The notes under the pieces: generated by a model
What the model was told of the DNA's origin: nothing
The model's database searches: none
Seen by the model: the letters and a program-made list of their open reading frames with translations, nothing else
Shown: piece by piece, positions 1 through 30,036 of the stretch
How the letters are laid out: the number at the start of each line of letters is the position of its first letter
Numbering within the stretch: position 1 is the first letter of the stretch
Position numbers and translations under genes: made by a program
Assembly: GCA_964552565.1 (NCBI GenBank)
Contig: CAZKGL010000001.1
Span: 307,061-371,060 of the forward strand
Reading direction: 5' to 3'
DNA length: 64,000 nt
Source: an uncultured Gammaproteobacteria bacterium
GTDB lineage: Bacteria > Patescibacteriota > Patescibacteriia > UBA9934

Positions 1-319
1 ACACGTGAATAATGACCTCGACACGCCGGGCGCGCTCGCCGTGCTCTGGACGTTCGTAAACGACGCGGGCGTGCAAAGCGACGTGAAGGCGGCGACCGTG
101 CTTGCGATGGACGAGGTGCTTGGGCTGGCGTTGGAAGACGTCGTCGCGCGTCCCATCCGCATGACGGATGAAGCGCAGAAACTGCTCGACGAACGCCAGG
201 CTGCGCGTGCGGCGAAGGATTGGGGGAAATCGGACGCGCTGCGCGACCAGCTCGCGGAGCTCGGCTATCTGGTCGAGGACACGGCAGAAGGGCAGCGGGT
301 GCGGGAGAAGCGGTACTAA
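1..319 (+). CDS. cysS: Cysteinyl-tRNA synthetase, C-terminal fragment; the CDS enters from upstream of the window
   Basis: The translation (DLDTPGALAVL...ARAAKDWGKSDALRDQLAELGYLVEDT) matches the CysRS C-terminal anticodon-binding/DALR region. The frame is open from base 2. Confidence 0.75.
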   Translation, partial: HVNNDLDTPGALAVLWTFVNDAGVQSDVKAATVLAMDEVLGLALEDVVARPIRMTDEAQKLLDERQAARAAKDWGKSDALRDQLAELGYLVEDTAEGQRVREKRY

Positions 320-322
320 GTT

Positions 323-430
323 GGCCGGGTCCTGCCGCCTTCGCACCCTGTCGCGCTGAGCGCGACCCTGTTGGGCGCTCGACTGGCGTCTACGCGCCCA
401 AGCAGGGGACCTGCTCGGCGTCACCCGGCT
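323..430 (+). repeat. Interspersed long-hairpin repeat, copy A. It carries an extra internal palindrome insertion GTCGCGCTGAGCGCGAC.
   Basis: Near-identical to the sequences at 15689-15783, 46214-46308 (reverse complement) and 50724-50816. The termini GGCCGGG...CCCGGCT are inverted repeats. Confidence 0.8.
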
Positions 431-450
431 GTCGTGTGAGCCTGGCTCTG

Positions 451-476
451 AAGCTCAGCTTCGAAGCTGAGCTTCC
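451..476. repeat. Perfect 26-bp palindrome GAAGCTCAGCTTCGAAGCTGAGCTTC. It could be a hairpin terminator or a protein-binding site.
   Basis: Exact 13-nt inverted repeat read directly; no T-run follows. Confidence 0.5.
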
Positions 477-628
477 GAGTTGTGCATAACGACCGTTGAC
501 AACGTGTCCATGAAGATGATGAACTGAAGATACGCAAAATCAATAAGACTATTGATTTTGGGCTCAACGAAAAAGCTTCCCTACTTCTTTATGAAGTGTT
601 GGGGAGCTTTTCGTTTGTCAAAATGCAT

Positions 629-701
629 GGGCCTGTCAGCATAACGGTAATGCTATCGGCGTTGAGCCCCGAGTATGTCGGTTCGAATCCGGTCGGGTCC
701 A
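629..701 (+). tRNA. tRNA, class I cloverleaf, anticodon read as UGA. Acceptor stem has G3-U70 and A73 (alanine-type identity elements); the genomic 3' end reads ACACCA. Identity is unresolved.
   Basis: Hand fold: acceptor GGGCCTG/CGGGTCC, D-stem AGCA/TGCT, anticodon arm TCGGC-GTTGAGC-CCCGA with one C-C mismatch at 31-39, T-arm GTCGG-TTCGAAT-CCGGT, short variable loop. Confidence 0.55.
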
Positions 702-711
702 CACCACGAAA

Positions 712-1263
712 ATGTGCTACACTATCGTCATGCCCGACGAAGGGACGGAGAAGAGCGTGACCAGTAATATGCTCGCACCGGAAAGCGGTGCGAAGGTTGA
801 GGCTGCCACGGAGGCGGCGCCGGAAAAGCCGCTGGAGATGCACGGCGCGGACATGGAGGAGCCCGAGCCGCAGCCCAAGGAACAAGAACATCCCGCGTCC
901 CCGCCGCAGCCCCCCGAGCCCGCACCGGCTCCTGCGCCCGCCGCCGCGCCGCCGGCAAAGGACAAGGCGGTCGTCGATGTGGAGAACATCCTCGCGTCCG
1001 GCCTCGAAGCGATGTACACGCAGCTGCCCGATGCAAAGAAGACGGCGTTCCGGCAGAAGGGCGAAGAGGTCGCGCGCGCCATCGTGCAGATGTTCCAAAC
1101 CGGAAGGGTAAAGGTCCATGCCATCCTCGACGCCATCCGTGACTGGCTGCGCATGATTCCCGGCGTGAACAAGTTTTTCTTGGAACAGGAAGCAAAGATC
1201 AAGACCGACCGCGTCCTCGCGTACGGCGAGAAGGCGTCGAAGGAGCAAACTAACGAAGTCTAG
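712..1263 (+). CDS. Hypothetical protein with a Pro/Ala/Glu-rich low-complexity N-terminus and a C-terminal globular domain. Alternative start at 730.
   Basis: Long ORF immediately upstream of the coupling ATPase; no recognisable family. Confidence 0.4.
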   Translation: MCYTIVMPDEGTEKSVTSNMLAPESGAKVEAATEAAPEKPLEMHGADMEEPEPQPKEQEHPASPPQPPEPAPAPAPAAAPPAKDKAVVDVENILASGLEAMYTQLPDAKKTAFRQKGEEVARAIVQMFQTGRVKVHAILDAIRDWLRMIPGVNKFFLEQEAKIKTDRVLAYGEKASKEQTNEV

Positions 1264-1282
1264 TGTGGGAGGAGCGCTTGTC

Positions 1283-3802
1283 ATGACGGCATACGCGAAG
1301 ACGTCCGGTCTCAACACCGCGTCCGACCTTTCGTTTGCCCCGTACCTCGTCGTTGCGGCGATCCTCGCGGCCATCGTCGCGGTTGCGTTTTTCGTGGCGC
1401 GGTCGATGCTGCGCAAGAAATCGCGCCAGCGGGGCGGGGCGTACACGAACGTCACGCTCATGGTGACGATCCCCAAGTTCCGCAGCGAGGAAGAGGCGAA
1501 GGGCAACGACACCCAGCAGACCGTCAAGGAGTCGATTGCGATCGCCGAAACGTTCTTTTCCGCGGTCGGCGGCTTGAAGCCGGAGCACGGGTTGAAGGCG
1601 TGGCTGTACGGCCGCCCGGATTCCCTTGCGCTCGAGATCGTCGCGCACGCAAAGCTGGTGACGTTCTTCGTGACGGTGCCGCGGTATCTGCAGGAGTTCA
1701 TCGAACAGCAGCTCCATGCACAGTACAGCGACGCGCACATCGAGCCGGTCGAGGACTACAACCTGTTTGCGCCGACGGGCACGGTGCTCGGCGGCTATTT
1801 GACGTTAAAGCGCCAAAGCGTCTTCCCGCTCAAGACGTACAAGGAGCTCGATTCGGACCCCATGAACGCGCTCACGAACGCGTTGTCGAAGGTGCAGGAG
1901 GGCGACGGCGTTGCGGTGCAGTACATCGTGCGGCCAGCGCACCACGGCTGGCGCGAGCTTGGCGCGAAGATCGTGCGCAACATGAACAACGGCATGACGC
2001 TCGAGGAAGCGACGAAGGGCAAGTCGATGGCGAGCTGGTTTGCGACGAAGGAAGACGTCGAAAAGAAAAAAGAGGAGAAGCGCGAGCGCAAACTCTCCCA
2101 AGCTGAGCAGAAGATGGTCGAGGGGATCGGCAACAAGATCAGCAAGGCCGGCATGGAGGTCAATGTGCGCGTCGTGTCGTCCGCGCAATCGGCGGACACC
2201 GCGCTTGCGAACCTGAACAACGTGCTCCAGGCGTTCAGCCAGTACAACATTTACGAATACGGCAATTCGTTCAGCAAGGTCATCCCGCCGGGGAAGGGCA
2301 AGCTTATCGACGCGTTCATTTTCCGCACGTTCGAGGAGCGCCAGCGCGTCATCCTGAACACGGAAGAGATGGCGTCGCTCTGGCACCTGCCGCTCCCGTC
2401 GACCGATACCCCGAACATCCGCTGGATGCTTGCGCGCGTCGCGCCGGCGCCGACGAACACCCCGACCGAGGGCCTCTTGCTCGGGTTCAATACGTTCCGC
2501 GGCGTGAAGAAGGACGTCTACCTCAAGGATGCCGACCGCCGACGCCACCTGTACATCATCGGTAAAACGGGCGCCGGTAAGTCGGAGTTCATCAAGAACC
2601 AGGCGATCCAGGATATCCGGAACGGCAAGGGCGTCGCGGTCATCGACCCGCACGGCGACCTGGCGGACGGGCTGCTTGAACTCATCCCGAAGCATCGTTA
2701 CGACGACGTCATCTACTTCAATCCGTCCGACATGGAGCGCCCGATGGGTCTCAACATGCTCGAGGCGCCCAACGAGCAGATGCGCGACTTCGCCGTGCAG
2801 GAGATGATCAGCATCTTCTACATGCTGTTCCCGCCGGAGATGATCGGTCCCATGTTCGAGCACAACATGCGCAACTACATGCTGACGCTCATGGCCGACG
2901 TCGAGCATCCGGGCACCATCGTCGAGATCCCGCGCATGATTGCGGACGAGAAGTTCCAGCAGCAGTGGGTCGCGAAGGTCAAGGACCCGGTGGTGCGCAG
3001 CTTCTGGGAGGACGAGATGGCGAAGACGAGCGACTACCACAAGAGCGAGATGATGGGCTACCTCGTCAGCAAGGTCGGCCGTTTCGTCGAGAACGAGATG
3101 ATGCGCAATATCATCGGCCAGTCGAAGAGCGCGTTCAACTTCCGCGAGATCATGGACGAGGGCAAGATCCTCCTCGTTAACCTGTCGAAGGGCAAGACCG
3201 GCGAGGTGAACGGGAACCTCCTCGGCCTCATCCTTGTCGCGAAGCTCCAGATGGCGGCGTTCACCCGCGCGGACATCCCGGAGCCGGAGCGCAAGGATTT
3301 CTACCTGTACATCGACGAGTTCCAGAACTTCGTCACGCCGTCGATCGCCACGATCCTTTCCGAGGCGCGTAAGTACCGCCTGAACCTCGTGATGGCGCAC
3401 CAGTACATGGGGCAGCTTGTGAAGGACGGGAGGAGCGAGATCCGCGACGCTGTGCTTGGCAACGTCGGCAGCATGTTCGTGTCACGCATCGGTCCTGAAG
3501 ACACGGAGGTGCTTGCGAAGATCTACGAACCGACCTTCTCGCCGTACGACCTCATGAACAATGAGGCATACAGCTGGAATGCGAAGATCATCATCGACAA
3601 CTCGCAGGAGAAGCCGTTTACGCTCAAGGCGTATCCCCCGGAGAAGGGAAAGCCGAAGGTGGGCGAGGCCCTGAAGGAGATCTCGCGCCTCCTGTACGGA
3701 CGCGACAAGGGCATCGTGGAGCGCGAAATTACGATCCGCGCCGGGCTCGGCATGAAGCCGCCCGTAAAGCCCGTCGCCCCTGTTTCACCTCCAAGCCTCT
3801 AG
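1283..3802 (+). CDS. TraD/VirD4/TrwB-family type IV secretion coupling-protein-like ATPase with an N-terminal TM helix. Alternative start at 1265.
   Basis: Walker A IIGKTGAGKSEF followed by VIDPHGD (TrwB/T4SS-DNA-transfer signature). Walker B/TraG-D_C-like YLYIDEFQNF...VMAHQYMGQL. GGGAGGAG lies 8 nt upstream of ATG 1283. Confidence 0.6.
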   Translation: MTAYAKTSGLNTASDLSFAPYLVVAAILAAIVAVAFFVARSMLRKKSRQRGGAYTNVTLMVTIPKFRSEEEAKGNDTQQTVKESIAIAETFFSAVGGLKPEHGLKAWLYGRPDSLALEIVAHAKLVTFFVTVPRYLQEFIEQQLHAQYSDAHIEPVEDYNLFAPTGTVLGGYLTLKRQSVFPLKTYKELDSDPMNALTNALSKVQEGDGVAVQYIVRPAHHGWRELGAKIVRNMNNGMTLEEATKGKSMASWFATKEDVEKKKEEKRERKLSQAEQKMVEGIGNKISKAGMEVNVRVVSSAQSADTALANLNNVLQAFSQYNIYEYGNSFSKVIPPGKGKLIDAFIFRTFEERQRVILNTEEMASLWHLPLPSTDTPNIRWMLARVAPAPTNTPTEGLLLGFNTFRGVKKDVYLKDADRRRHLYIIGKTGAGKSEFIKNQAIQDIRNGKGVAVIDPHGDLADGLLELIPKHRYDDVIYFNPSDMERPMGLNMLEAPNEQMRDFAVQEMISIFYMLFPPEMIGPMFEHNMRNYMLTLMADVEHPGTIVEIPRMIADEKFQQQWVAKVKDPVVRSFWEDEMAKTSDYHKSEMMGYLVSKVGRFVENEMMRNIIGQSKSAFNFREIMDEGKILLVNLSKGKTGEVNGNLLGLILVAKLQMAAFTRADIPEPERKDFYLYIDEFQNFVTPSIATILSEARKYRLNLVMAHQYMGQLVKDGRSEIRDAVLGNVGSMFVSRIGPEDTEVLAKIYEPTFSPYDLMNNEAYSWNAKIIIDNSQEKPFTLKAYPPEKGKPKVGEALKEISRLLYGRDKGIVEREITIRAGLGMKPPVKPVAPVSPPSL

Positions 3803-3824
3803 TGTGCTAGTCTAGGCACACTAT
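3803..3824. promoter_or_regulatory. 22-bp perfect palindrome AGTGTGCTAGTCTAGGCACACT between the coupling ATPase stop and the dnaX start; possible operator.
   Basis: Inverted repeat read directly in the 20-nt intergenic gap. Confidence 0.35.
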
Positions 3825-5328
3825 GGCCGAGACGCTCTACCGCAAATACCGCCCACAGACCTTTGCCGATGTCGCCGAGCAGGACCATGTCCGGCGTACC
3901 GTCGAGAACCAGCTGAAGACCGACACGGTCGCGCACGCGTACCTCTTTTCGGGTCCGCGCGGCGTCGGCAAGACGACGATTGCCCGTCTCCTCGCAAAGG
4001 CGGTGAACTGTACCGGACGCGCCGCGGGGCAGAGCGAGCCGTGTAATGCGTGCTCGCATTGCGCCGACTTCGCCGCAGGGAGGTTTTTGGACGCCATCGA
4101 GATCGACGCGGCGTCGCACACCGGCGTCGACAACGTCCGCGAAAACGTCATCGAGAACGTCCGTTTTGTCCCGCAGCGGGGCAAGTACAAGGTCTTCATC
4201 ATCGACGAAGTGCACATGCTCTCGACGAGCGCGTTCAACGCGCTCCTGAAAACGCTCGAGGAACCGCCGGCGCACGTCATGTTCATTTTCGCCACGACCG
4301 AACTCCACAAGATTCCCGCGACCATTGTCTCGCGCTGCCAGCGGTTTGATTTCCACCGTATCCCGGCGGACGAGATGGTGGGGCGCCTCGGCCGTATTGC
4401 AAAGGCGGAGGGCGTCACCGTCGACGAGGACGTGCTGCGCACCATCGCGAAGCTCCCGGAGGGCTGCCTGCGCGACGCGGAGAGCCTGTTCGGCCAGGTC
4501 TTGTCCGTCGGCGGGCCGCAGATCACCGCGGAGTCGGCGTCGGCCGTGTTGCCGATGACGACCATCGCGCTTGTGCGGGACCTTCTCGAGTGCGTGGTCG
4601 TGAAGGACATGCCGGGCATCATCGCCAAGCTCACGGCCTTTGTTGACGAGGGCGGATCGGTGAAACAGCTGCACGATGAGCTGATTGAGGAGGCGCGCGA
4701 CGTCATGTGCGCGGCGATCGAGGGGAAGGAGGCGGCGGTTGACGCGGCCTCGGCGCGCCGCCTGCTCGACCTGTTGCTTGCTGCGCGGAACCGCCCGTCG
4801 CTCGCCATCCTTCCGCAGCTGCCGCTTGAACTGGCATTGGTCGAATTTGTGCTTGGCAATCCGTCGGCCCCTGCCACGCCCTCCGCACCGCCTCCGGCCC
4901 CTCCCAGGGGAGGAGGGGAGCCGCGCGGGCTTGTCGGGCCGCGTCCTGCACAGCCCCCACACCATCCCACCACCCCACCATCCACCAACGACACGACGCC
5001 GTCCGGCGCGCTCTCTTTTACGCTTGACGATATCCAGAACAAGTGGGAGCGATGCTGCGACTATGTCGCGGACCGGAACGTGGCGCTGCCGCTCGTGCTG
5101 CGCGCCGGCAAGCCGATGACGGTCGAGGGGAACCGCGTGACGATCGGCTTCGCGTACGGGTTCCACGCCGACGCCTGCAAGGAACAGAAAAACATCCGCC
5201 TTATCGAAGACGCGGTCGCGGCGGTCATGATGGAGCGGCCGATCGTCGGCGTCGCGGTGTTGCCGCAAACGAACACCGACCCGCTCGGCGACCTTGCGGC
5301 CGCGTTCGGCGGATCGGTGGTGGGCTAG
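3823..5328 (+). CDS. dnaX: DNA polymerase III subunit gamma/tau
   Basis: N-terminus YRPQTFADVAEQDHV...AYLFSGPRGVGKTTIARLLAKAVNC, then the CxxC zinc module and the DEVHML box. A Pro-rich linker contains a copy of the CCACCATC-type repeat. Confidence 0.9.
   Translation: MAETLYRKYRPQTFADVAEQDHVRRTVENQLKTDTVAHAYLFSGPRGVGKTTIARLLAKAVNCTGRAAGQSEPCNACSHCADFAAGRFLDAIEIDAASHTGVDNVRENVIENVRFVPQRGKYKVFIIDEVHMLSTSAFNALLKTLEEPPAHVMFIFATTELHKIPATIVSRCQRFDFHRIPADEMVGRLGRIAKAEGVTVDEDVLRTIAKLPEGCLRDAESLFGQVLSVGGPQITAESASAVLPMTTIALVRDLLECVVVKDMPGIIAKLTAFVDEGGSVKQLHDELIEEARDVMCAAIEGKEAAVDAASARRLLDLLLAARNRPSLAILPQLPLELALVEFVLGNPSAPATPSAPPPAPPRGGGEPRGLVGPRPAQPPHHPTTPPSTNDTTPSGALSFTLDDIQNKWERCCDYVADRNVALPLVLRAGKPMTVEGNRVTIGFAYGFHADACKEQKNIRLIEDAVAAVMMERPIVGVAVLPQTNTDPLGDLAAAFGGSVVG
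4957..4987. repeat. In-frame oligo-repeat CCACACCATCCCACCACCCCACCATCCACC (CCACCATC-type), copy 1, inside dnaX. It encodes PPHHPTTPPST.
   Basis: Shares the (CCACCATC)n core with 38644-38675 and 45415-45447. Confidence 0.6.
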
Positions 5329-15688: not shown

Positions 15689-15783
15689 GGCCGGGTCCTG
15701 CCGCCTTCGCACCCTGTTGGGTGCTCGACTCGTCGGACTCGTCTGCGCGCCCAAGCAGGGGACCTGCTCGGCGTCACCCGGCC
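15689..15783 (+). repeat. Interspersed long-hairpin repeat, copy B, ending 6 nt upstream of tRNA-Arg
   Basis: GGCCGGGTCCTGCCGCCTTCGCACCCTGTTGGG...CCCAAGCAGGGGACCTGCTCGGCGTCACCCGGCC. Termini GGCCGGG/CCCGGCC are complementary. Confidence 0.8.
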
Positions 15784-18158: not shown

Positions 18159-19154
18159 ATGACCCGCGTGCTTGCCGCGTTGGCACTGTGTGCCGCACTT
18201 GCGTTCCCGCCGTCCGCCCGCGCCGCGACGGCCGACCTTTCTATCGACCAGGGGTCGATTACGTTTTCGACGTCGACATTTTACGCAGGGGACGACATCC
18301 GCATCTACGCGAAGGTCCGCAATGTCGGCGACACGGACATGACCGCGCTCGTCATCTTCTACCAGGGTTCCGCGGTCATCGGCAGGACGCAGCCGATTTC
18401 GTTGCGCGCCGGCGGGGCGCCGGAAGAGGTGTTCGTCGACTTCACTGTGCCGAACGCGTCGTTCAACATCCGGGCGGTCGTGTCTGGGGCGGAGCCGGCA
18501 GACGAGAACACGTCGAACAACGAGGCGACGACGCTTTTGTACACGCCGCTCCAGGACGACGACCGCGACGGGGTGGAAGATGACGCGGACAACTGCCCGA
18601 ACGATGCGAACGGCACGCAGGCGGATACGGACGGCGACGGGGACGGCGACGCGTGTGACAGCGACGACGATGCGGATTCGCTTTCCGACGCGACCGAGGA
18701 GTCGCGGGGGACCGATCCGGCCGACGACGATACGGACGATGACGGCGTCGACGATGCGGACGACGTTGCGCCGACGGACCCTGACGTCAGTGAGGAGCCG
18801 GCGCCAGCGCCGCAGCAGACGACATCGACCGCATCGACGAACAGCAGCGTGACGTCGTCGCCGATCGCGACCGCGCAGGCGGCTGAAACTGATGATGACG
18901 ATACTGCGGCAGAAACCGAAGAAGAGACGCCGGCATTCGAGCGGCCGACGTCTGCGTTCGCCCTGTTTCCCTCCGGCACGGTCGATGCGGACGGCGATGG
19001 TGTTGCGGACGACGCGGCGGGGTTCTTCCGCCTCAACAACCCGATCCTCGTCGGACTGCTCGGCGCGTTGGCGCTCGTCGCCATCGCCTGCATCGTCGCG
19101 ATCGTACTCATGCGGCGCCGCGAGGCGCGCGATGCGGACGGCAAGGACGTATGA
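18159..19154 (+). CDS. Secreted, membrane-anchored protein with a CARDB-like N-domain and thrombospondin-type-3 / Ca-binding Asp-rich repeats
   Basis: Signal peptide, DxDxDGxxDxxDNC-type repeats (DDDRDGVEDDADNCPNDANGTQADTDGDGDGDACDSDDD), acidic low-complexity middle, and a C-terminal TM. Confidence 0.55.
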   Translation: MTRVLAALALCAALAFPPSARAATADLSIDQGSITFSTSTFYAGDDIRIYAKVRNVGDTDMTALVIFYQGSAVIGRTQPISLRAGGAPEEVFVDFTVPNASFNIRAVVSGAEPADENTSNNEATTLLYTPLQDDDRDGVEDDADNCPNDANGTQADTDGDGDGDACDSDDDADSLSDATEESRGTDPADDDTDDDGVDDADDVAPTDPDVSEEPAPAPQQTTSTASTNSSVTSSPIATAQAAETDDDDTAAETEEETPAFERPTSAFALFPSGTVDADGDGVADDAAGFFRLNNPILVGLLGALALVAIACIVAIVLMRRREARDADGKDV

Positions 19155-20758
19155 TGCAGAAGCTGTTCCAGGCGGCATCGCCCTCCATCGCGAGCGCGGC
19201 GGTCATTGTGGCCGCTTTTTCCGTCGTCTCGCGCCTCGCGGGGTTTGTCCGCGACCGCATCTTGCTCGGCCTGTTCGGGGCGGGGGAGACGCTCGACATT
19301 TACTACCAGGCTTCCCGCATCCCGGATTTTTTGCTGCAGCTCTTGGTCGTCGGCGCGCTTTCCGCGAGCTTCATTCCGATTTTCGCCAAGTATCTTGTTG
19401 CGGGCGATGACGCGAAGGCGTGGCGGTACACGAACGGCATGCTTGCGTTCCTCGTCACCGGGTTCGGCGTCGTCGCCGTCGCGGGCGCCGTCGCGGCCCG
19501 GCCGCTCGCCGCACTCATCGCGCCGGGCTTTTCGGACGACGCGCTCGACCACGTCGCGCAGATGATGCGCGTCATGTTCCTCGGACAGTGCTTCTTCAGC
19601 GTCTCGCTCGTGTTCGGTTCTGCGCTCCAAGGCGCGAAGCGGTTTGTCGTGACGTCGCTCGCCCCGGTGGTGAACAACGTCGGCATCATCCTTGGCGCAC
19701 TGTTCCTCGTCCCGCTCATGGGGCCGGTCGGACTCGCGTGGGGCACGGTGCTCGGCGCGCTGCTGCACGCCCTCGTCCAGCTCGTCGGCGCCGCGTCCCT
19801 CGGATATGCGCCGTCGTTCGTACCGTTTTGGCGCGACAAGGACGTGCGGGCGACCGCATTCCACATGGCGCCGCGCACGCTGGGCCTTGCGGTGAACCAG
19901 ATCAACTTCCTGATTATGGGCGTCATCGCGACGACGCTCGCCGCGGGCTCCGCGACGATCTTCAACCTCGCGTACACGCTCAACTTTTTCCCGATCGGCG
20001 TCATCGCGGTGTCCTACGCCATCGCCGCGTTCCCGACGATGTGCGAACACGCGGCAAAGAAAAACACCGACGGGTTCCGCACCGTGTTTTCCGACACCAT
20101 CCGCCAGGTGTTGTTTTACATCATCCCCGCGACGGTGCTGTTCCTCCTGTTGCGTGCCCAGCTGGTGCGTGTGTTATTCGGCGCGGCCGCGTTCGACTGG
20201 GAGGCGACGATCCTGACCGCGGACACGCTTGCGTACTTTGCGCTGAGCTTCTTTGCGCAGTCGTTCGTGTTCGTGCTCGCCCGCGCCTACTTTGCCTTTG
20301 AAGACACGCTGACGCCGCTTGTCGTCGGCACCGCTTCCGCGCTCATCAACGCCGCGGCAGCGTGGGTACTCGCCGACGGCATGGGCGTCGTCGGCCTCGG
20401 CCTTGCCTTTTCCCTCACCGCGATGTTCCAGGCCGCGCTCTTGTGGGTGTTCCTGCGCATCCGCGTGGGCAGCCTGCACGAAGGGTCGATCCTCGCGTCG
20501 CTCGCGAAATTGTCGCTCGCCGGCCTTGCGGCGGGTGTGGCGACACAGGCGACGAAATATGCCGTCGTGCGCATCGTCGAACTCGACACCTTCTGGGCGG
20601 TGTTTGCGCAGGCCGCGATCGCGTCGGTCGCCGGGCTCGTCGTGTACGCTGCGGTCGCGTTTGTGCTCGGCAGCCGCGAGATGGCCGACGTCGCGCGCGG
20701 CTTGCGCCGGAAGTTGCTGCGTGCGGCGCGCCCGACCGGCGTCACGGAAACCGTATGA
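19151..20758 (+). CDS. murJ: Lipid II flippase MurJ
   Basis: Typical MviN/MurJ N-terminus SRLAGFVRDRILLGLFGAGETLDIYYQASRIPDFL and multiple TM helices. Confidence 0.85.
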   Translation: MMQKLFQAASPSIASAAVIVAAFSVVSRLAGFVRDRILLGLFGAGETLDIYYQASRIPDFLLQLLVVGALSASFIPIFAKYLVAGDDAKAWRYTNGMLAFLVTGFGVVAVAGAVAARPLAALIAPGFSDDALDHVAQMMRVMFLGQCFFSVSLVFGSALQGAKRFVVTSLAPVVNNVGIILGALFLVPLMGPVGLAWGTVLGALLHALVQLVGAASLGYAPSFVPFWRDKDVRATAFHMAPRTLGLAVNQINFLIMGVIATTLAAGSATIFNLAYTLNFFPIGVIAVSYAIAAFPTMCEHAAKKNTDGFRTVFSDTIRQVLFYIIPATVLFLLLRAQLVRVLFGAAAFDWEATILTADTLAYFALSFFAQSFVFVLARAYFAFEDTLTPLVVGTASALINAAAAWVLADGMGVVGLGLAFSLTAMFQAALLWVFLRIRVGSLHEGSILASLAKLSLAGLAAGVATQATKYAVVRIVELDTFWAVFAQAAIASVAGLVVYAAVAFVLGSREMADVARGLRRKLLRAARPTGVTETV

Positions 20759-21426
20759 GGGTGTTGTGGCGCATGGCAAAATGGTTGCTCGTGCTTGCGG
20801 TCGGCCTCACGATCGCGGTCTTTGTTTGTGCGCAGGCTGCGGTCGCGGAGATGGAGGCGAAGATCGTCACTGTCGCCGACCTTGCGCCGGCGCCGGCGGT
20901 CATCGTCCCCGGCGCGAGCGTGCTCAGGAACGGCCAGCCGTCCGACGTCCTCGCCGACCGGTTGCTGACCGCGATCGACATCTACGAGGCGGGGAAGGCG
21001 GAGAAGATCTTGGTGTCCGGCGACCATGGCGATGAGGAATATGACGAGGTGAACGTCATGCGGACGTACCTCCTCGACAAGGGCATCCCGGAGGAGGACA
21101 TTTTTCTCGACCACGCCGGGTTCGACACCTATGACACCATGTACCGCGCCCACCACCTTTTTGGGCTGACGGAGGCGGTCGTCGCCAGCCAGACGTTCCA
21201 CTTGCCCCGGGCGATCTATATCGGGGAGTCGCTTGGGATGGCGGTGCAGGGTGTGGCGTCGGAACGGCAGCCGTACGTCAAAGACGCGGAGTTTGCCTTC
21301 CGCGAGCGGTTCGCGGTCGTCAAAGCCTATGTGGATGTCATGCTGGGCTCGAATCCCGCGTATCTTGGCGAAAAAATCGATATTTCGGGCGATGGCCGCG
21401 TGACGTGGGACCAGGGGCTGGAATGA
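20755..21426 (+). CDS. DUF218-domain protein (YdcF/SanA/ElyC family)
   Basis: N-terminal TM plus a YdcF-like core. The start ATG overlaps the murJ stop as ATGA. Confidence 0.55.
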   Translation: MRVLWRMAKWLLVLAVGLTIAVFVCAQAAVAEMEAKIVTVADLAPAPAVIVPGASVLRNGQPSDVLADRLLTAIDIYEAGKAEKILVSGDHGDEEYDEVNVMRTYLLDKGIPEEDIFLDHAGFDTYDTMYRAHHLFGLTEAVVASQTFHLPRAIYIGESLGMAVQGVASERQPYVKDAEFAFRERFAVVKAYVDVMLGSNPAYLGEKIDISGDGRVTWDQGLE

Positions 21427-21435
21427 TGAGGGCGG

Positions 21436-21464
21436 TTGACAAACCTCGACCGCTCGTGTAGTAT
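21436..21464 (+). promoter_or_regulatory. Near-consensus sigma70 promoter TTGACA-N17-TAGTAT
   Basis: Hexamers read directly; the predicted TSS is ~17 nt upstream of the 21488 ORF. Confidence 0.5.
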
Positions 21465-21487
21465 TTTCGCTTGTCTTAGCGAAGAGC

Positions 21488-21757
21488 TTGGACTTGATGG
21501 AGGGGACTTTTCCAAAGGGGGCAGATTTGGAAAAGATGGAGCGTGAGGAGATGTACTTCGTGACGTTTCGCGTGTCGTCCGACCGCCATGGGGAGATGTC
21601 GGTCACGATCCCGTGGGCCGACCGGTTCGGCAGCCATGCGCGGTTCTCGCACCCGATCCCTCGGGATGCGGTCATCGCGCCGGCGCCAGCCCAGCCGGTC
21701 CCGGATCAGATCAAGGTGCGCATCGGCGCCCTTGTGTTCGTCCGTCGCGCGGCCTGA
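21488..21757 (+). CDS. Hypothetical small protein
   Basis: ORF immediately downstream of the strong promoter; no family recognised. Confidence 0.3.
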   Translation: MDLMEGTFPKGADLEKMEREEMYFVTFRVSSDRHGEMSVTIPWADRFGSHARFSHPIPRDAVIAPAPAQPVPDQIKVRIGALVFVRRAA

Positions 21758-21850
21758 CCGCTGCGCCGTAGGCTCCCTCGCCTCGTCGAGGGCTCCTACC
21801 ACCCGTCTTCATCATCCCAGGATGGTGGCGAGCGGTGGAGGGAGAAACAG

Positions 21851-22753
21851 ATGGACTTTCACTTCGCCGTCCTCATGCAGCGGCTCGAGGCCGTGCAGCG
21901 GGACATGCCCGTGGTCATGGCCGCGGTGCGCAACGAGACGATCCGCGTCGCGTCCGACCCCATGCTCGCGTGGTACGGGGAGAAGATGGTGTACACGGGG
22001 TTCCTCATCATGGGCCTGTGCCTCGTCTTCAGCGAGGCGATCGCCGAAGCGGTGCACCCGCGGCCCCCGCCGCGGCCCCGGCCTCGCACCAGCCTCATCT
22101 CGCTCGTCCCGCCTCCTCCGCCCAGCGGCGGGGACGGCGAGGACGCGCCGCGCGAGGAGGAGCCCGACCCGTCGGTCCGCAACACGCTGCCGGGCGACCG
22201 GCCGCTGCCCGCGCGCCTCGGCCTCGCGTCCGCATCGGCGGATCTCGGCTCGCCGCCGGACCCCCCGTCCGTGCCGCGCTCCGTGCGTCGCATGATGGGG
22301 CTCGACGACATCCTCGGCGCGCCGCGCGAGGACGACCCGTTCGCCGCCATGCGCGGCCCCGGGTACCAGTCCGCGTTCGACCCGCCGTCTCCGGTCCTCG
22401 TGTCGGAGAACGCGGAGGACGTGCCGACGCCGTCCCAGCTGCCGCGCGCCACCTCGCCGACTGCTGAGCACGAGGAAGACCTCATGGGCGGCCACGGCGG
22501 AGGGGCGGACGACCAGGAGTCGACCGAGGACCTCGGCGCGGACGACCAGGGCTCCGGAGACGGCAACGAGGACGCGCCGGCCGAGGAGCCGGGGCTGGTG
22601 CCGCCCACCGCGGGCGAGTTCCTGGCCCTCTCGGGCTTCGGGAAGGTCGAGGACGATTTCTTCAACAGCGAGGTCGGCACCGTCGGGCCCGTGGACCCGT
22701 CCCGGCAGCCGGGACGCATGCCGCGCCCCTCGACCGAAGAGGAAGAGTCCTAG
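21851..22753 (+). CDS. Hypothetical protein with one TM, then a long Pro-rich/acidic disordered region
   Basis: GGAGGGAG lies 7 nt upstream of the ATG. The hydrophobic segment is YTGFLIMGLCLVF. Confidence 0.4.
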   Translation: MDFHFAVLMQRLEAVQRDMPVVMAAVRNETIRVASDPMLAWYGEKMVYTGFLIMGLCLVFSEAIAEAVHPRPPPRPRPRTSLISLVPPPPPSGGDGEDAPREEEPDPSVRNTLPGDRPLPARLGLASASADLGSPPDPPSVPRSVRRMMGLDDILGAPREDDPFAAMRGPGYQSAFDPPSPVLVSENAEDVPTPSQLPRATSPTAEHEEDLMGGHGGGADDQESTEDLGADDQGSGDGNEDAPAEEPGLVPPTAGEFLALSGFGKVEDDFFNSEVGTVGPVDPSRQPGRMPRPSTEEEES

Positions 22754-22771
22754 CGTCAACAAGGAGGAACG

Positions 22772-22812
22772 GACGGTGTCCAGATCGTGGGCACCGTCTT
22801 CCTATTTCTGGG
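22772..22812 (+). terminator. Hairpin GACGGTG...CACCGTC followed by a T-rich tract
   Basis: Read directly after the stop at 22753. Confidence 0.5.
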
Positions 22813-22935
22813 GATGCGCGCTTGTAAGCGAGCTTTACTTTTGCGAGAATTCGGTGTAGATTATTGCGTCGTTTTCCTTCTGGGCCGTCGATACGAGCCG
22901 TACCGGTTCGCGCCGATCCCTGGAGGGAAGGCAAC

Positions 22936-23187
22936 ATGCATATCGTTCGTGGCATCGGGGCGTTCATCGTCGTCATCGGGTCGTTCTTCGCAGGGGCGTT
23001 CATCGTGTGGCAGGAGTCCGCGCCGACGATCGCCGCCTACCAAGCGCACAGCGCGTCGACGGAGCGCATCGCCCGGGAGTGCATCGAGAACAGTGAGAGG
23101 CTCGGCGGCCTCGCGGACGAGGCGTCGCAGCTGGCGGCCGATTCGCTCGCGCGCTACATCGCCTGCCAGGAGGAGCAGGGCAACTAG
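22936..23187 (+). CDS. Array gene 1: small membrane protein (83 aa) with 1 TM and a helical tail
   Basis: GGAGGG lies 8 nt upstream of the ATG. Translation begins MHIVRGIGAFIVVIGSFFAGAFIVW. Confidence 0.55.
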   Translation: MHIVRGIGAFIVVIGSFFAGAFIVWQESAPTIAAYQAHSASTERIARECIENSERLGGLADEASQLAADSLARYIACQEEQGN

Positions 23188-23274
23188 GCGACGACAACGT
23201 CGCGCGTCCGGATACTCGGCACGAGGTTCTCCTCGCGCCGATCTCCGGCCGAATGGATCGACCGAGGAGGCACA

Positions 23275-23604
23275 ATGTTCGAGCTCGTGGTCTTTTATAT
23301 CGTGTACATGGTTTTCTTGTCCGCCGCCCTTGGTTTGGGCTCGGTGGTGGGGGCGCGAGTGCCGCGCACGCGCCGTCGACCGGTGGCGATTGGAGCCATC
23401 TTCGGCTTCGTGTTCTTCTTCCTGTCTACGATTGTCGTAGCGCTGATGGGGATGCACAACGCCATGAGCATCATCGTGGCGTGTGCCGTGGTGCACAATT
23501 TTTCTGGGGGACTCCTCATTCGGTTCGTGCTGCAGATCATCAGTGAGCGTCACCGCTCGGCCGACGCCATTCGCCGCCTCTACCCTGACGACCACGTGCA
23601 GTGA
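23275..23604 (+). CDS. Array gene 2: small polytopic membrane protein (109 aa)
   Basis: Leader ...CCGGCCGAATGGATCGACCGAGGAGGcacaATG; about 3 TM helices. Confidence 0.55.
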   Translation: MFELVVFYIVYMVFLSAALGLGSVVGARVPRTRRRPVAIGAIFGFVFFFLSTIVVALMGMHNAMSIIVACAVVHNFSGGLLIRFVLQIISERHRSADAIRRLYPDDHVQ

Positions 23605-23867
23605 TGACGAGCATCGCCGCGTTCGTGTTCATGTCTTCGCTGCCGACTGCAGCGTACGTCGTCGCCGCGCTGTTCCTCGGGAGCGGCGCACTGCACTGGC
23701 GCAGTGCGTATCCGGCTGTAGGCCCGATTGTGGGCTGTGCGTGTGGGCATATCGTCGGAGCGCTGTTGGGCGAGATGATCGTGCAGGATCAGCTGATGTG
23801 GCCCGCCGCAATCGTGGTCCTGGCCGTCTACGTCGTCATGCACTTCGTGATCGCGTATTGCAGGTAG
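23604..23867 (+). CDS. Array gene 3: small membrane protein (87 aa)
   Basis: ATG overlaps the upstream stop (TGATG). About 3 TM helices. Confidence 0.45.
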   Translation: MTSIAAFVFMSSLPTAAYVVAALFLGSGALHWRSAYPAVGPIVGCACGHIVGALLGEMIVQDQLMWPAAIVVLAVYVVMHFVIAYCR

Positions 23868-23972
23868 GTGGCCCCGTCGCTCGCGAGCGACGGGGCGGGC
23901 CGGACGTCGAGATGAGGAAACGCCTCGTCTCGATCACCGGCCGAATCAACCAATCGGCCCCGGAGGTTGCCA

Positions 23973-24167
23973 GTGGTCCGTACCGTGTTGCGTATCTTCG
24001 TTCTCGGCATCATCATCGGGATCGTTGCGTCACTCGTCGGGGAGGGGTTGTTCGGCCACGACAGTCCCGTGCGGGCGCGGATGATGACCGCGGGCGCCGC
24101 GGTTCTGCTCATGCTCGGGCTTCCGGACCTTTGGGACATGTGGAAGGCGAAGAAGCGGGAGGGGTGA
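23973..24167 (+). CDS. Array gene 4: small membrane protein (~64 aa). GTG start proposed; an alternative TTG start lies at 23967.
   Basis: GGAGG sits 6 nt upstream of the GTG; 2 TM helices. Confidence 0.4.
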   Translation: MVRTVLRIFVLGIIIGIVASLVGEGLFGHDSPVRARMMTAGAAVLLMLGLPDLWDMWKAKKREG

Positions 24168-24323
24168 GCATCTGTCCGGCGTTTGCTCGCTCGTGTCGCG
24201 CGACGATTCCTCGAAGTCGTCGCGCCGCCGTCAATGTTCGAGTGTTCAAAAATGGCCGATCGTCATTTTTTGAACACATGGTCATCGACGGCCGAATGGA
24301 TCGACCGAGGAGGTACCTGTCCC

Positions 24324-24551
24324 ATGTTCCGCGCCATGCTCGCCCGCGTCCGTACGATGGATGCTGACGAGATCATCCTCTACTTCTGGTCGCCAACGGC
24401 CCTGCTGCTCATCATCCCGGGGATCTTCATCCGGGAAGTGGCTGCCCAGCAGGCGTTCGGCAAGCTGATGTTCGGGTGGCTGGTGTTCACTCCGCTCCTG
24501 TACCTCATCGTCTGCCTGGTTCGACGCGGGCCCGTGAAGACCGCCTCGTGA
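24324..24551 (+). CDS. Array gene 5: small membrane protein (75 aa)
   Basis: Same GGCCGAATGGATCGACCGAGGAGG leader module as gene 2; 2 TM helices. Confidence 0.5.
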   Translation: MFRAMLARVRTMDADEIILYFWSPTALLLIIPGIFIREVAAQQAFGKLMFGWLVFTPLLYLIVCLVRRGPVKTAS

Positions 24552-24726
24552 CGCCGACGGACGACGAGCTGGACCTGTTCCCTGAACTTCGTGACGACCG
24601 CTAGCCAGTCGTCCTGCCGGATCCTCGGCATCACCGGTTCGCGGTGGTGCCAAGTCCCGGCCGAAGGTGTGCGGCGCGGGAATGTCCCCGCGCGGCATGC
24701 GTGACCACCGGCCAACGGAGGACGTC

Positions 24727-25014
24727 ATGATCGTCATGATGTTCGTAGCAATCCTCAGCGCACCGGTGCACGCCGCCGATGCGTTCGCGTCATGGCCGCC
24801 GCCTGAGCCGCCGCAGCAGGAGGACGAGTGTGCGGGCGAGCTCGCCGAGGCGAACGCCCGCATTGTCGAGCTCGAGGAGGCGCTCATCGACGCGGAATGC
24901 GACACGGTGCGTGACCGCTGGGTTTCCCGTGTGGAAGATATTGTCACTGGGCTCGTCGTGGCGGGCGTCCTTGGCGCGCTGGTCTGGCTCAAGCCGGACC
25001 ACACGGGTCGCTGA
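24727..25014 (+). CDS. Array gene 6: small secreted or bitopic protein (95 aa) with a signal peptide, coiled coil and C-terminal TM
   Basis: Leader ...CCACCGGCCAACGGAGGacgtcATG. Signal peptide MIVMMFVAILSAPVHAADA. Confidence 0.5.
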   Translation: MIVMMFVAILSAPVHAADAFASWPPPEPPQQEDECAGELAEANARIVELEEALIDAECDTVRDRWVSRVEDIVTGLVVAGVLGALVWLKPDHTGR

Positions 25015-25019
25015 TCGAG

Positions 25020-25280
25020 ATGCGCGCACTTCGGACGCTGCTCCTCGCGGTCGCCGTGGCGCCGATCGTCGGCGTGTGGGCGTTCCCGCTGGGCGGGTTG
25101 CTCGCGGTCGCCATCTACGCGGTTCTCCTTGGCATCGGCCGCGCGGAGGACGCGGCGTGGTGCCTGCTCGGCTTCCCGTGCGCCGGGCTTGCGCTCGTCG
25201 GCCTGTCGCGCTCCCACGAGGAGCGGTGGCTTGCCGCCATTCCCATGCCGTCGCCCGACGATACGCCGTTCGCGGCGTGA
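25020..25280 (+). CDS. Array gene 7: small membrane protein (86 aa)
   Basis: Starts 5 nt after the gene 6 stop; ~3 TM helices; no own SD. Confidence 0.4.
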   Translation: MRALRTLLLAVAVAPIVGVWAFPLGGLLAVAIYAVLLGIGRAEDAAWCLLGFPCAGLALVGLSRSHEERWLAAIPMPSPDDTPFAA

Positions 25281-25398
25281 TGTCGGACAGCCGGACGTCG
25301 AGATGAGGGAACGCCCTTGTCTCGATCACCGGCCGAAGGTGTGCGGCGCGGGAATGTCCCCGCGCGGCATGCGTGACCACCGGCCAACGGAGGCCACC

Positions 25399-25728
25399 AT
25401 GGGCATCGTCATCGTCACTCTTTCCGTTTCCGCTGCGTGGATCATCGGGCTGGCGGCGCTCCTCGGACTCATGGATCCATGGCCCCTCTTCTCCCGGAAC
25501 ATCCGAGAGTGGATGCTGGCCGCGGCTCCGGTCCCGCCCGTCCGCCCGATGTCGCCGATCGTGTCGCCTGCGCTCCTCATGATGTCCGGCATTGTGCTCA
25601 TCGCCGCATCGCTGCCCCTCGTCACTATGGAGTGGGGATGCCTTTCGAGGATCATCCTCATCATCATCGGAGGGGCGTTCGTCGCCACCGCGCTCACGCG
25701 GATCCACCGGTACTTCACGGTGGGCTAG
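25399..25728 (+). CDS. Array gene 8: small polytopic membrane protein (109 aa)
   Basis: Same CCGGCCGAAGGTGTGCGGCGCGGGAATGTCCCCGCGCGGCATGCGTGACCACCGGCCAACGGAGG leader as gene 6. Confidence 0.5.
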   Translation: MGIVIVTLSVSAAWIIGLAALLGLMDPWPLFSRNIREWMLAAAPVPPVRPMSPIVSPALLMMSGIVLIAASLPLVTMEWGCLSRIILIIIGGAFVATALTRIHRYFTVG

Positions 25729-25828
25729 CGGGAACGCCGTCCGGATACTCGGCACGAGGTTCTCCTCGCGCCGATCTCCGGCCGAACTGTTCGGTCCCGT
25801 TCCGTCCAACCCTGTCCCCGGAGGTTCC

Positions 25829-26248
25829 GTGGAGCACGTGCACTTCGCGATCGCCGCCATCGTGCCGCCGACACGCCACTCGCTCGGCGCGTTGGTCGTC
25901 ATGTGCGCCGTCGCGGCCGCCATCATCTTCATCCTGGCGAAGCCGGAGTTCGCGCGGCGCATCGCGCGGCGCATGCTCCGCGTGGGAATCGCGCTTGCCA
26001 TCATGACGCTGCTCATCATCGGCGGGTACGCGCTGCGCGTCGGCCTGTCGGGTGTCGGCCTGCCCGAGTCGCTGTCGAACATCATCGGCTTCACGGTGAC
26101 GTGGGGCGGGATGTACCTGGTCATCATCGACTGGATGCGCCGGCAGCGCGCGTTCCTCGCATCGCAACAGCAGGCTGCGCGCGACGCAGGCGTCCGCGCG
26201 CTCCGCCCTGGCCGCTTCCCGCACCCCGAGCCACCGGAGGACCCATGA
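25829..26248 (+). CDS. Array gene 9: membrane protein (~139 aa), GTG start
   Basis: CCCCGGAGGttccGTG; 3-4 TM helices. Confidence 0.45.
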   Translation: MEHVHFAIAAIVPPTRHSLGALVVMCAVAAAIIFILAKPEFARRIARRMLRVGIALAIMTLLIIGGYALRVGLSGVGLPESLSNIIGFTVTWGGMYLVIIDWMRRQRAFLASQQQAARDAGVRALRPGRFPHPEPPEDP

Positions 26249-26526
26249 ACCAGGTCGTGTCGCTCTTTGTCCGACTCTCGTACCACCCGGCCGCGCCGTA
26301 CCTCACGATGCTCATCGTCGGAGAGGCGGCTGTCGGACTCATCTCCTGGGGCGGCGGACTCACGCACGTCCCCTGGTGGCATGCGGCGCTCGGCGTCGGC
26401 GTCACCATGCTGGTGCTGACGGCCGCTCTCCGCGCCGACGAGCGGACGCTGGCGAAGTACTACGGGCACATGCTCGTCGCCTTCGCCGCCGTCGTGCTCC
26501 TCGTCGGCTGGATGGTGACGCCGTGA
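26245..26526 (+). CDS. Array gene 10: small membrane protein (93 aa)
   Basis: GGAGGacccATG overlaps the upstream stop (ATGA); 3 TM helices. Confidence 0.5.
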   Translation: MNQVVSLFVRLSYHPAAPYLTMLIVGEAAVGLISWGGGLTHVPWWHAALGVGVTMLVLTAALRADERTLAKYYGHMLVAFAAVVLLVGWMVTP

Positions 26527-26684
26527 CGCTCACGGCCGCCTCCGTCGCTGCGTGCGCCGTCGACCTCGTCCTCGCGCTCGCCGTCCTCGTCGCCATGATC
26601 CGATGGTGGCCGGAGACGCGGCGCGAGCGCCTCAATCGCCGCATGGGAGGACCGGACCTCCGTGAACGCCCCCGCTCGTGCTGA
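26523..26684 (+). CDS. Array gene 11: very small TM protein (~53 aa), GTG start overlapping the upstream stop (GTGA)
   Basis: One TM plus a basic tail. Weakly supported; the terminator follows. Confidence 0.25.
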   Translation: MTLTAASVAACAVDLVLALAVLVAMIRWWPETRRERLNRRMGGPDLRERPRSC

Positions 26685-26708
26685 GCCGGGGCGTTCTTCC
26701 TTTTATTG
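26664..26708 (+). terminator. Rho-independent terminator closing the small-gene array
   Basis: GAACGCCCCCG...CGGGGCGTTC hairpin followed by TTCCTTTTATT. Confidence 0.55.
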
Positions 26709-26745
26709 CAAACGATGGGCGTTTTCGTTACACTCATCCCATTCT

Positions 26746-28527: not shown

Positions 28528-28613
28528 ACCCATCCCGAGGCGGATGCCGAGGGACCTAGAAAAACGTCGTCACAGCGTCTGCTGGGTCCCTCCTGGCGTC
28601 GGGATGGTTTCAT

Positions 28614-29102: not shown

Positions 29103-29173
29103 GCATCGCCATTTCTCCGTTATACACACTCCCGCTTGCCCGGTCCCGATATCAGTCCGACAATATCGGTACT

Positions 29174-29947: not shown

Positions 29948-30036
29948 AGCAGACGGCATGACGTCCTTCGACAGAATCATCTCGTTCCTTGTGGGATGAT
30001 TTTGTCGTAAAAGGAGGCACGATAATTAACTGCGTT

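Follow-up and report, generated by a model that had tools for sequence, protein, structure and literature searches.

A transfer RNA (tRNA)-like element of 73 nucleotides (nt) is encoded near the start of a 64-kb stretch of DNA (64,000 nt in full, hereafter the window) from the genome (~62% GC) of an uncultured groundwater bacterium, Candidatus Uhrbacteria. Based on its fold, its context and its distribution among relatives, we consider it probable that this element is a young, degenerating relic of the tRNA-Ala type (a pseudo-tRNA) that was carried in on a small insertion. An earlier reading of the same DNA (hereafter the original prediction) had proposed a natural mistranslating tRNA that places alanine at a serine codon, with a pseudo-tRNA or a decayed tRNA-Ala as the fallback. 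The fallback is the best fit to the evidence, and the mistranslator is not supported: the element is an orphan, scores low, has malformed arms, lacks a terminator and a consensus promoter and probably has no encoded CCA. The criteria on which we treat the element as a pseudogene, all of them read from the sequence, are a low model score with defects at normally invariant features and the lack of the promoter, CCA and terminator that mark the functional tRNAs of this genome. We infer that it is neither expressed nor functional. The element and its parts, numbered by window position, are as follows.

629-701, forward strand: tRNA-like element, 73 nt, detected by ARAGORN and by Rfam RF00005 (35.4 bits), identical in a second assembly (L081)
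629-635 with 694-700: acceptor stem
638-654: D-arm
656-660 with 668-672: anticodon stem
661-667: anticodon loop
663-665, forward strand: UGA at positions 34-36, which would read the serine codon UCA, with G32 (661) and G37 (666) beside it
673-676: variable loop
677-693: T-arm
701: discriminator A
631 (forward strand) paired with 698: G3·U70, which with A73 (701) and G2-C71 forms the identity set of alanyl-tRNA synthetase (AlaRS), from sequence reading, covariance-model alignment and PMC9976931

Two programs call this tRNA. ARAGORN finds three tRNAs in the window, namely tRNA-Gln(ctg) at 6246, tRNA-Arg(ccg) at 15790 and the element, which it calls tRNA-Ser(tga) at 629-702, and this was also the outcome of the ARAGORN check on the segment that the original prediction had recommended. 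Rfam RF00005 aligns with 629-701 over its full length (1-71 of 71) at 35.4 bits, above the gathering score of 29, with E-values of 0.0011 when the whole window is searched and 7.6e-6 for a 461-nt region. The 73-nt class I tRNA with G3·U70 and A73 that had been folded by hand is recovered by both programs, by Rfam with the same fold, and its short variable loop of 4 nt agrees with the claim that it is not of class II. The anticodon loop, GUUGAGC (661-667), the UGA within it and the C31·C39 mismatch beneath it were likewise read correctly, and are found in the sequence, in the ARAGORN fold and in the Rfam alignment. The description of the element as a canonical tRNA held in part: the cloverleaf is full-length on RF00005, but the D-arm junctions and the anticodon arm are non-canonical. 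It had also been stated that a covariance model assigning a different anticodon, or scoring the element as a pseudogene, would count against a mistranslating tRNA; the model retains UGA, and the score of 35.4 bits is partly pseudogene-like.

The alanine character of the element resides in its acceptor and T arms. The acceptor stem reads G1-C72, G2-C71, G3(631)·U70(698), C4-G69, C5-G68, U6·G67 and G7-C66, and the T-arm is canonical (GUCGG/UUCGAAU/CCGGU) with two G·U pairs. Alanine identity in bacteria comprises A73, G2-C71, G3·U70, G4-C69 and G20 (PMC9976931). The element carries the major determinant (G631·U698) as well as A701 and G630-C699, and departs from the minor ones, having C4-G69 and U20. 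The missing G4-C69 weighs little, because most of the listed bona fide metagenomic tRNA-Ala genes also have C4-G69. Its anticodon, UGA, is none of the alanine anticodons (UGC, GGC and CGC), and AlaRS disregards the anticodon. Serine identity in bacteria is also independent of the anticodon, and lies mainly in a long variable arm and G73. With a 4-nt variable loop and A in place of G at position 73, the element does not qualify as a class II tRNA-Ser. Since the long variable arm is missing and the discriminator is A73, seryl-tRNA synthetase (SerRS) cannot claim it, and for the same reason the label "tRNA-Ser" derives from the anticodon alone. The identity logic of the original prediction was thus sound, with G3·U70, A73 and G2-C71 present, the serine determinants absent and the SerRS of the window of the standard type. 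The two synthetase genes concerned are both in the window.

26662-28527, forward strand: alaS, short-form AlaRS (PF01411 and PF07973; NF002436 at 844.5 bits over the full length; matches to AlaRS entries of the PDB)
62668-63930, reverse strand: serS, standard bacterial SerRS with an N-terminal coiled-coil arm, which binds the long variable arm of tRNA-Ser (PF02403 and PF00587; TIGR00414 at 452.6 bits)

The AlaRS has ~600 amino acids, with aminoacylation and editing domains and without the C-Ala domain, and appears to be encoded by a single standard gene, 26 kb from the element. This gene overlaps by 38 nt an open reading frame (ORF) of 375 amino acids (28490-29617, forward strand) that has no Pfam or NCBIfam match. 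Were the RNA of the element made and matured, AlaRS would plausibly be the only enzyme to charge it.

We compared the 3' half of the element (T-loop, 3' strand of the T-stem and the acceptor stem's 3' strand) with metagenomic sequences. The matches yielded 106 complete tRNAs, 86 of them tRNA-Ala (72 with UGC, 11 with GGC and 3 with CGC), a share that is enriched by construction because the scan required U70. In most of these 86 the acceptor stem has GGGCC(U/C)G as its 5' strand, and in many the T-arm is near-identical to that of the element. By this comparison, the acceptor/T minihelix is of a normal tRNA-Ala design. None of the ~110 complete tRNAs from two such 3'-half scans has a UGA anticodon, and among ~414 tRNAs collected without selection on the 3' end, G3·U70 accompanies a non-alanine anticodon in 10, mostly odd phage tRNA-like sequences or miscalls. 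Nearest-neighbour typing of the D and anticodon arms, region by region, was uninformative, as the comparison set was biased by the way it was collected. In a search for parents, the acceptor/T half matched the tRNA-Ala family and the D-arm core matched compact tRNAs of the phage type, and no donor of the insert was found.

The rest of the molecule departs from the canonical form. The D-arm can be drawn in two registers: in the ARAGORN drawing, UCA (3 nt) lies between the acceptor and D stems and UA (2 nt) follows the D stem, and in the Rfam alignment the D stem is shifted, U takes the place of A14 and the posterior probabilities fall to 0.5-0.6. The canonical arrangement, with junctions of 2 nt at positions 8-9 and 1 nt at position 26, is not found. 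The D-arm core itself, GCAU-AACGGUA-AUGC, is a common compact D-arm. It occurs in 31 IMG/VR contigs, where most cases are tRNA-Gln(UUG) and others are Asn, Thr and Ala tRNAs. It is flanked there by U8-A9 and N26, compared with U-C-A and U-A in the element, which therefore has an extra nucleotide on each side. In the anticodon arm, the usual 5-base-pair (bp) stem is interrupted by C31(660)·C39(668), flagged as non-canonical by Infernal, and the pyrimidine normally at position 32 is replaced by G; U33 and a purine at position 37 are present. G32 is able to pair with C38 across the mismatch, and the isolated arm is predicted to prefer non-canonical folds (-4.4 to -4.5 kcal/mol) to the canonical one (-1.9 to -2.7 kcal/mol).

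This mismatch invites a reading in which the element is an unconventional decoder: with positions 31 and 39 open, a 4-bp stem would carry a 9-nt loop (CGUUGAGCC), and the tRNA might read quadruplets, shift the frame or read near-cognate codons beyond UCA. Altered decoding has a precedent in tRNAs with 4-bp anticodon stems (PMC13092985), and one of the loci that we collected (L203) holds a tRNA-Ala-like gene with an 8-nt anticodon loop. However, pairing of G32 with C38 shrinks the loop rather than enlarging it, and frameshifted genes were not noticed in the window, where the three stop codons serve normally. The objections from expression and conservation that are set out below against a mistranslator apply here too, and we regard such a decoder as highly improbable. 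The normal use of TGA, TAA and TAG as stop codons in the window also agrees with the original prediction, which had taken TGA as a stop and found no recoding signal.

The departures in the D and anticodon arms are accompanied by a low covariance score. Compared with the 35.4 bits of the element, the two other tRNAs of the window reach 63.1 and 66.2 bits against RF00005, and ten tRNA-Ala genes with the same acceptor end reach 63-76 bits, so that the element lies 28-40 bits lower. Two phage tRNA-Ala genes with the compact D-arm score 50 and 66 bits, and metagenomic tRNAs that combine an Ala-type acceptor with a non-Ala anticodon score 46-56 bits. Only 3 of the 61 comparator tRNAs fall below 40 bits, which places the element in the bottom ~5%.

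The distribution of the element is extremely narrow. Syntenic matches to its surroundings come overwhelmingly from metagenome-assembled genomes of Uhrbacteria, Magasanikbacteria and other Patescibacteria, and across the Patescibacteria the order cysS, small ORF, VirD4/DUF8128-like ATPase gene and dnaX is conserved. In 80 syntenic loci from GTDB species representatives, the region upstream of the ATPase gene contains no tRNA by ARAGORN and no homolog of the element by blastn or nhmmer. Nor is the element present in L082 and L083, the closest relatives found through the protein database (ATPase 79-80% identical), which brings the syntenic relatives that lack it to 82. In three of the relatives (L002, L015 and L008), cysS and the small ORF are separated by just ~10-60 nt. 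From alignments with L082 and L083, we place the boundaries of a lineage-specific insertion at ~445 and ~705, giving a length of ~260 nt, and the 3' end of the element forms its right boundary. The insertion has 47% GC (40% in the spacer) compared with ~62% in the genome. The remainder of the insertion is made up as follows.

445-628, forward strand: rest of the insertion, with a near-perfect palindrome at 446-479 and an AT-rich spacer at 476-628 (40% GC)
535-560: strong hairpin
566-615: strong, terminator-like hairpin with an A-tract, a GC-rich stem and a U-tract, ending ~14 nt 5' of the element

The only other copy of the element is in L081 (assembly GCA_016177675.1), where both the element and its flanks are identical. 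The two assemblies represent the same population, differing by 3 single-nucleotide polymorphisms (SNPs) in ~6 kb and by two repeat indels, and because of this the identical copy carries no evolutionary information. A test of selection between the window and L081 likewise had too few differences to be informative. The second copy does bear on whether the element is an artefact of assembly or binning, or a chimera that metagenome assembly made from two tRNA fragments. The window does come from a metagenome-assembled genome, and the two halves of the element resemble different types of tRNA, but an identical sequence with identical flanks in an assembly that differs elsewhere by SNPs and indels, together with flanks that are collinear with the conserved synteny on both sides, makes an artefact hardly credible.

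Searches for a source of the insertion yielded no donor. Exact-pattern scans for the D-arm with its flanks found no match in 241 M metagenome records or in IMG/VR, the pattern of the anticodon arm gave 5 chance matches in viruses, all inside coding sequence, and the patterns of the palindrome and of the AT-rich hairpin had no match in viruses. The insert had no blastn match among phages and plasmids and no credible member of other Rfam families, and within the window neither an attachment (att) site nor a partial tRNA duplication was detected, only an unrelated intergenic repeat. A candidate partial second copy of the tRNA in the spacer, based on a shared GCATAACG, was not significant (232 of 1000 shuffles). 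An insertion hotspot with mobile genes was also considered and rejected, as the larger gaps at this site in relatives hold ordinary genes (for a sulfatase and TMEM43-like proteins). A phage origin based on 3'-half matches in IMG/VR was rejected as well, since by sequence most such matches look like the 3' ends of transfer-messenger RNA (tmRNA). Among the 30 viral-contig matches (L240-L269), 26 are without a complete tRNA, most of these resemble tmRNA 3' ends (...UUCAAGACGCCGGUUCGAAUCCGGCCAGGUCCACCA) and several lie near contig ends, a pattern that is consistent with prophage integration at ssrA.

The 3' flank of the element contains the following two features.

702-711, forward strand: 3' flank CACCACGAAA, in which the CCA at 704-706 aligns with the L082 flank GAACCA-GAAAATG; no terminator follows
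715-723, forward strand: extended -10-like motif TGCTACACT, 6 nt 5' of the ATG at 730, the promoter of the downstream operon

The 3' end of the element reads A73-CA-CCACGAAAATG. The original prediction had noted that the genomic 3' end is ACACCA; this is correct as read, and the CCA in it aligns with the ancestral flank as preserved in L082, the nearest relative that lacks the element. This CCA thus probably belongs to the flank and not to the element, which would account for the odd ACACCA. In tRNA-Gln and tRNA-Arg of the window, CCA directly follows N73 and is itself followed by a clean intrinsic terminator, and tRNA-Gln has the promoter TTGACG-17-TATTCT. The element has no terminator on its 3' side, and its 5' side contains no consensus promoter and no match to the extended -10 motif TGnTAYAAT. 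A motif resembling TGnTAYAAT does lie 6-8 nt 5' of the ATG of the small ORF in all five relatives examined, which are without the element; conserved locations are 715-732 in the window, 3869-3890 in L002, 5449-5472 in L015, 721-741 in L082 and 118-147 in L083. Because of this promoter of its own (715-723), the downstream operon needs no read-through of the element, and we therefore rejected the idea that transcription of the essential dnaX operon is forced through it, the conserved extended -10 being located between the element and the ATG. The short distance from motif to start codon suggests that the mRNA of the cluster of the small ORF, the ATPase gene and dnaX may be leaderless or nearly so. 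Six more matches to TGnTAYAAT occur elsewhere in the window.

We propose that a copy of the tRNA-Ala type entered one lineage of Uhrbacteria as the right end of an AT-rich insertion of ~260 nt, at a site bounded by cysS and the promoter of the operon that follows. The acceptor/T-arm half would have remained genuine tRNA-Ala (G1-C72, G2-C71, G3·U70, A73 and a canonical T-loop), with the D-arm junction and the anticodon arm becoming damaged or being divergent from the outset, and with the triplet UGA instead of NGC. With no transcription unit to itself and, probably, no CCA in its gene, the element is most likely of little or no consequence for translation. A stray transcript, if processed and tailed with CCA, could probably be alanylated by AlaRS, but would then be expected, given its malformed anticodon arm, to decode the rare codon UCA poorly.

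Several observations weigh against such a relic. The streamlined genomes of the candidate phyla radiation (CPR), of ~1 Mb, usually purge useless DNA. Of the 21 stem pairs of the element, 20 still pair (4 of them as G·U), and, as drawn by ARAGORN, it keeps all the main tertiary partners (U8·A14, A15·U48, G18, G19, G53-C61 and a canonical T-loop). This near-intact structure is compatible with a very recent origin or with selection on structure. Between the cloverleaf and the minimum free energy (MFE) fold there is a gap of 9.4 kcal/mol, which looked striking beside 2 controls and which we downgraded as evidence of decay when it proved to be at only the ~90th percentile of 355 comparator tRNAs, and thus no outlier. 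A weak extended -10-like motif, TGTCAAAAT (616-624), does lie just 5' of the element. The tRNA-Ala ancestry that we infer for the element is a presumption where the D and anticodon arms are concerned, and the 3'-half scan, which required U70, favoured tRNA-Ala by construction. Finally, 5.6% of bacterial tRNA genes have anticodon stems of 4 bp, which can be functional (PMC13092985), and natural D stems span 3-5 bp (PMC7609411).

Some of these observations also speak for a functional tRNA-Ala(UGA) that would be transcribed, matured by RNase P and the CCA-adding enzyme, alanylated by the short AlaRS and used to place alanine at UCA, resulting in low-level and possibly conditional mistranslation. 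The AlaRS identity core is complete (PMC9976931), the acceptor/T minihelix resembles that of real tRNA-Ala, alaS is present in the window, SerRS is unable to claim the element, and the stems and tertiary partners are largely intact, with 4-bp anticodon stems able to work (PMC13092985). Natural tRNAs with G3·U70 and non-Ala anticodons do exist, and three of them insert alanine in E. coli after a change of their anticodon to CUA (PMC5389517). The cost would be tolerable, as UCA accounts for just 58 of the 16,453 codons in the window (3.5 per 1000, or 7.5% of serine codons). However, the element is confined to one population, and no dedicated or duplicated synthetase adjoins it; the neighbouring cysS is a housekeeping gene that is syntenic in relatives without the element. 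Established bacterial mistranslators have been kept across genera and are linked to an isoform of ProRS (PMC10404621). The low score, G32 and C31·C39, which favour a closed or misfolded anticodon arm, the probable lack of an encoded CCA, the lack of a terminator and consensus promoter and the terminator-like hairpin just 5' of the element all point the same way. G49·U65, one of the pairs by which E. coli tRNA-Sec rejects EF-Tu (PMC9976931), adds a weak hint. We therefore rate a functional tRNA-Ala(UGA) as unlikely. The fuller proposal, in which a recently acquired, working Ser-to-Ala mistranslator of the 7/5 type, with CCA added post-transcriptionally and an AlaRS without C-Ala, would be seen at its evolutionary origin in a CPR bacterium with a minimal genome, strikes us as quite unlikely.

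A role outside decoding is a further alternative. The spacer at 560-569 (GGGCTCAACG) is perfectly complementary over 10 nt to 660-669 of the window (positions 31-40 of the element, the anticodon loop with its flanks), a score that 19 of 1000 shuffles reach. Such pairing could point to an RNA regulator in which the anticodon arm pairs with the upstream leader; the element might otherwise serve as a processing or stability element for RNase P/Z on read-through transcripts of cysS, or as an alanyl donor in a non-ribosomal reaction, for example the aminoacylation of the cell wall or of lipids. The part that would be needed for recognition by RNase P, CCA addition and AlaRS, the acceptor/T minihelix, is the best preserved, and the decoding half is the defective one. 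The two G·U pairs are at the end of the T-stem that contacts EF-Tu, where G49·U65 is an antideterminant for EF-Tu in tRNA-Sec (PMC9976931), and L081 has a ddl gene ~4 kb upstream. Nevertheless, the leader pairing is absent from the predicted MFE fold and is only marginally significant once multiple testing is taken into account, no transferase of the Fem/MprF type was seen nearby, and the downstream operon, with its conserved promoter, offers nothing to process. With an element that is not conserved, any role of this kind would, moreover, have to be a very recent invention. We consider a non-decoding role very unlikely.

The element can be compared with several known systems. With canonical bacterial tRNA-Ala it shares G1-C72, G2-C71, G3·U70, A73, the acceptor strands GGGCCUG/CGGGUCC, a canonical T-loop and the CCGG core of the T-stem, and it differs in having UGA instead of NGC, C4-G69 for G4-C69, no G20, a compact D-arm with extra nucleotides and a 4-nt variable loop. 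Its low score, non-canonical junctions, anticodon-stem mismatch, position as an orphan in an AT-rich insertion and lack of expression signals are all shared with tRNA pseudogenes and relics, although its preservation (20 of 21 stem pairs and all the main tertiary partners) far exceeds that of a typical decayed pseudogene and no parent or mobile-element context was identified for it. The tRNA-like domain of tmRNA is likewise an acceptor/T-arm mimic charged by AlaRS, with G3·U70 and a 3' end of the form ...GGUUCGAAUCC...GGUCCA, whereas the element forms an entire 73-nt cloverleaf, D and anticodon arms included, and has no mRNA-like domain, and Rfam assigns it to tRNA and to no tmRNA family.

Among tRNAs whose identity and anticodon disagree, the G3:U70 allo-tRNAs of Mukai et al. 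(PMC5389517) combine G3·U70 with a non-Ala anticodon, as the element does, but have an 8/4 or 9/3 acceptor/T geometry compared with 7/5 in the element; those with anticodons GCG and UUA inserted alanine in E. coli once these had been changed to CUA (PMC5389517). Alanine at a non-alanine codon is likewise the predicted outcome for tRNA-Ala(CAG) of yeast and for human anticodon variants of tRNA-Ala (PMC11415595). The yeast examples are conserved within clades, whereas the element stands alone and has a defective anticodon arm. In Streptomyces and Kitasatospora, tRNAProX shows a comparable disagreement and has a synthetase gene, ProRSx, adjoining it (PMC10404621); it occurs across genera beside a distinct synthetase isoform of matching specificity, whereas the element is not conserved and the cysS next to it has an unrelated specificity.

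Other tRNAs with an Ala-type acceptor (G3·U70 and A73) and a non-Ala anticodon emerged from our collection, at L200 (710-785, reverse strand), L252 (6655-6728, forward), L161 (4204-4277, forward), L162 (399-472, reverse), L203 (466-544, reverse) and L092 (5979-6053, forward; the same as L111 and L114). Two of them are similar class I "Leu(UAA)" tRNAs of ~56 bits each, both with a mismatch at 27-43, one from a metagenome contig with 69% GC and one from a viral contig. The remainder are a Val(GAC) tRNA with the same short D-loop, UAACGGUA, an Asp(GUC) tRNA, an Ala-like body whose anticodon loop has 8 nt, and a tRNA-like phage sequence that fails to form an anticodon arm. As candidates for mistranslation, these tRNAs may be better than the element.

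If the element is a relic, it illustrates how annotation pipelines that label a gene "tRNA-Ser(UGA)" by its anticodon alone may credit a genome with a false serine isoacceptor and mislead screens for recoding or mistranslation. Context, in the form of synteny with relatives, the register of the CCA, the terminator and the promoter, is what tells relics from real dual-identity tRNAs. If it were functional instead, it would be a rare natural bacterial tRNA that swaps alanine for serine, in a host-dependent organism with a genome of ~1 Mb in which proteome-wide ambiguity should be costly, and it would show how easily an alanine identity that is independent of the anticodon captures new codons. 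An active UGA anticodon would affect few sites and would be unrelated to the recoding of stop codons.

The surroundings of the insertion comprise the following features.

5-319, forward strand: 3' end of cysS, a housekeeping gene, the 5' neighbour, which is upstream of the small ORF in most relatives
323-435, forward strand: copy of an intergenic repeat, older than the insertion and not part of the element
730-1263, forward strand: small conserved ORF starting M-P-D-E (M-P/S-D-E in relatives), the first gene of the cluster
1265-3802: VirD4/DUF8128-like ATPase gene
3823-5328: dnaX

The two indels between the window and L081 are both in this cluster. One, of ~53 nt and thus not a multiple of 3, is in a Pro/Ala-rich repeat of the small ORF (891-946), and the gene is called truncated in L081; the other, of ~93 nt (31 codons), is an in-frame indel in the ATPase gene (2528-2619). 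They are either repeat-mediated variants within the population or assembly collapses.

The intergenic repeat at 323-435 predates the insertion, as a copy in the same place in L083 indicates. It belongs to a family of ~90-110 nt with internal inverted repeats and the core CGGGTCCTGCCGCCTTCGCACCCTGT...GCGCGCCCAAGCAGGGGACCTGCTCGGCGTCACCCGG, whose copies are the following.

323-435, forward strand: copy between cysS and the insertion
15689-15782, forward strand: second copy
46217-46305, reverse strand: third copy
50730-50811, forward strand: fourth copy
1-80 of L083: related copy at the cysS/small-ORF junction of this relative (~80%)

One of the copies stops 8 nt short of tRNA-Arg(ccg) and another ~11 nt short of the start codon of fmt. 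The repeat matches no Rfam family, and its fold z-score is modest (-2.4). It could be an element similar to repetitive extragenic palindromes or miniature inverted-repeat transposable elements (REP/MITE-like), or a 5'-leader RNA.

Elsewhere in the window, at 18359-26469, 29977-32883, 36795-44372 and 46729-57943, many large ORFs, of up to 1052 amino acids, are without a Pfam family (E<=1e-5), as is typical of CPR genomes. The genes that we identified include those for Dus, a TrmA-like methyltransferase, Fmt, CorA, a major facilitator superfamily (MFS) transporter and a beta-CASP RNase.

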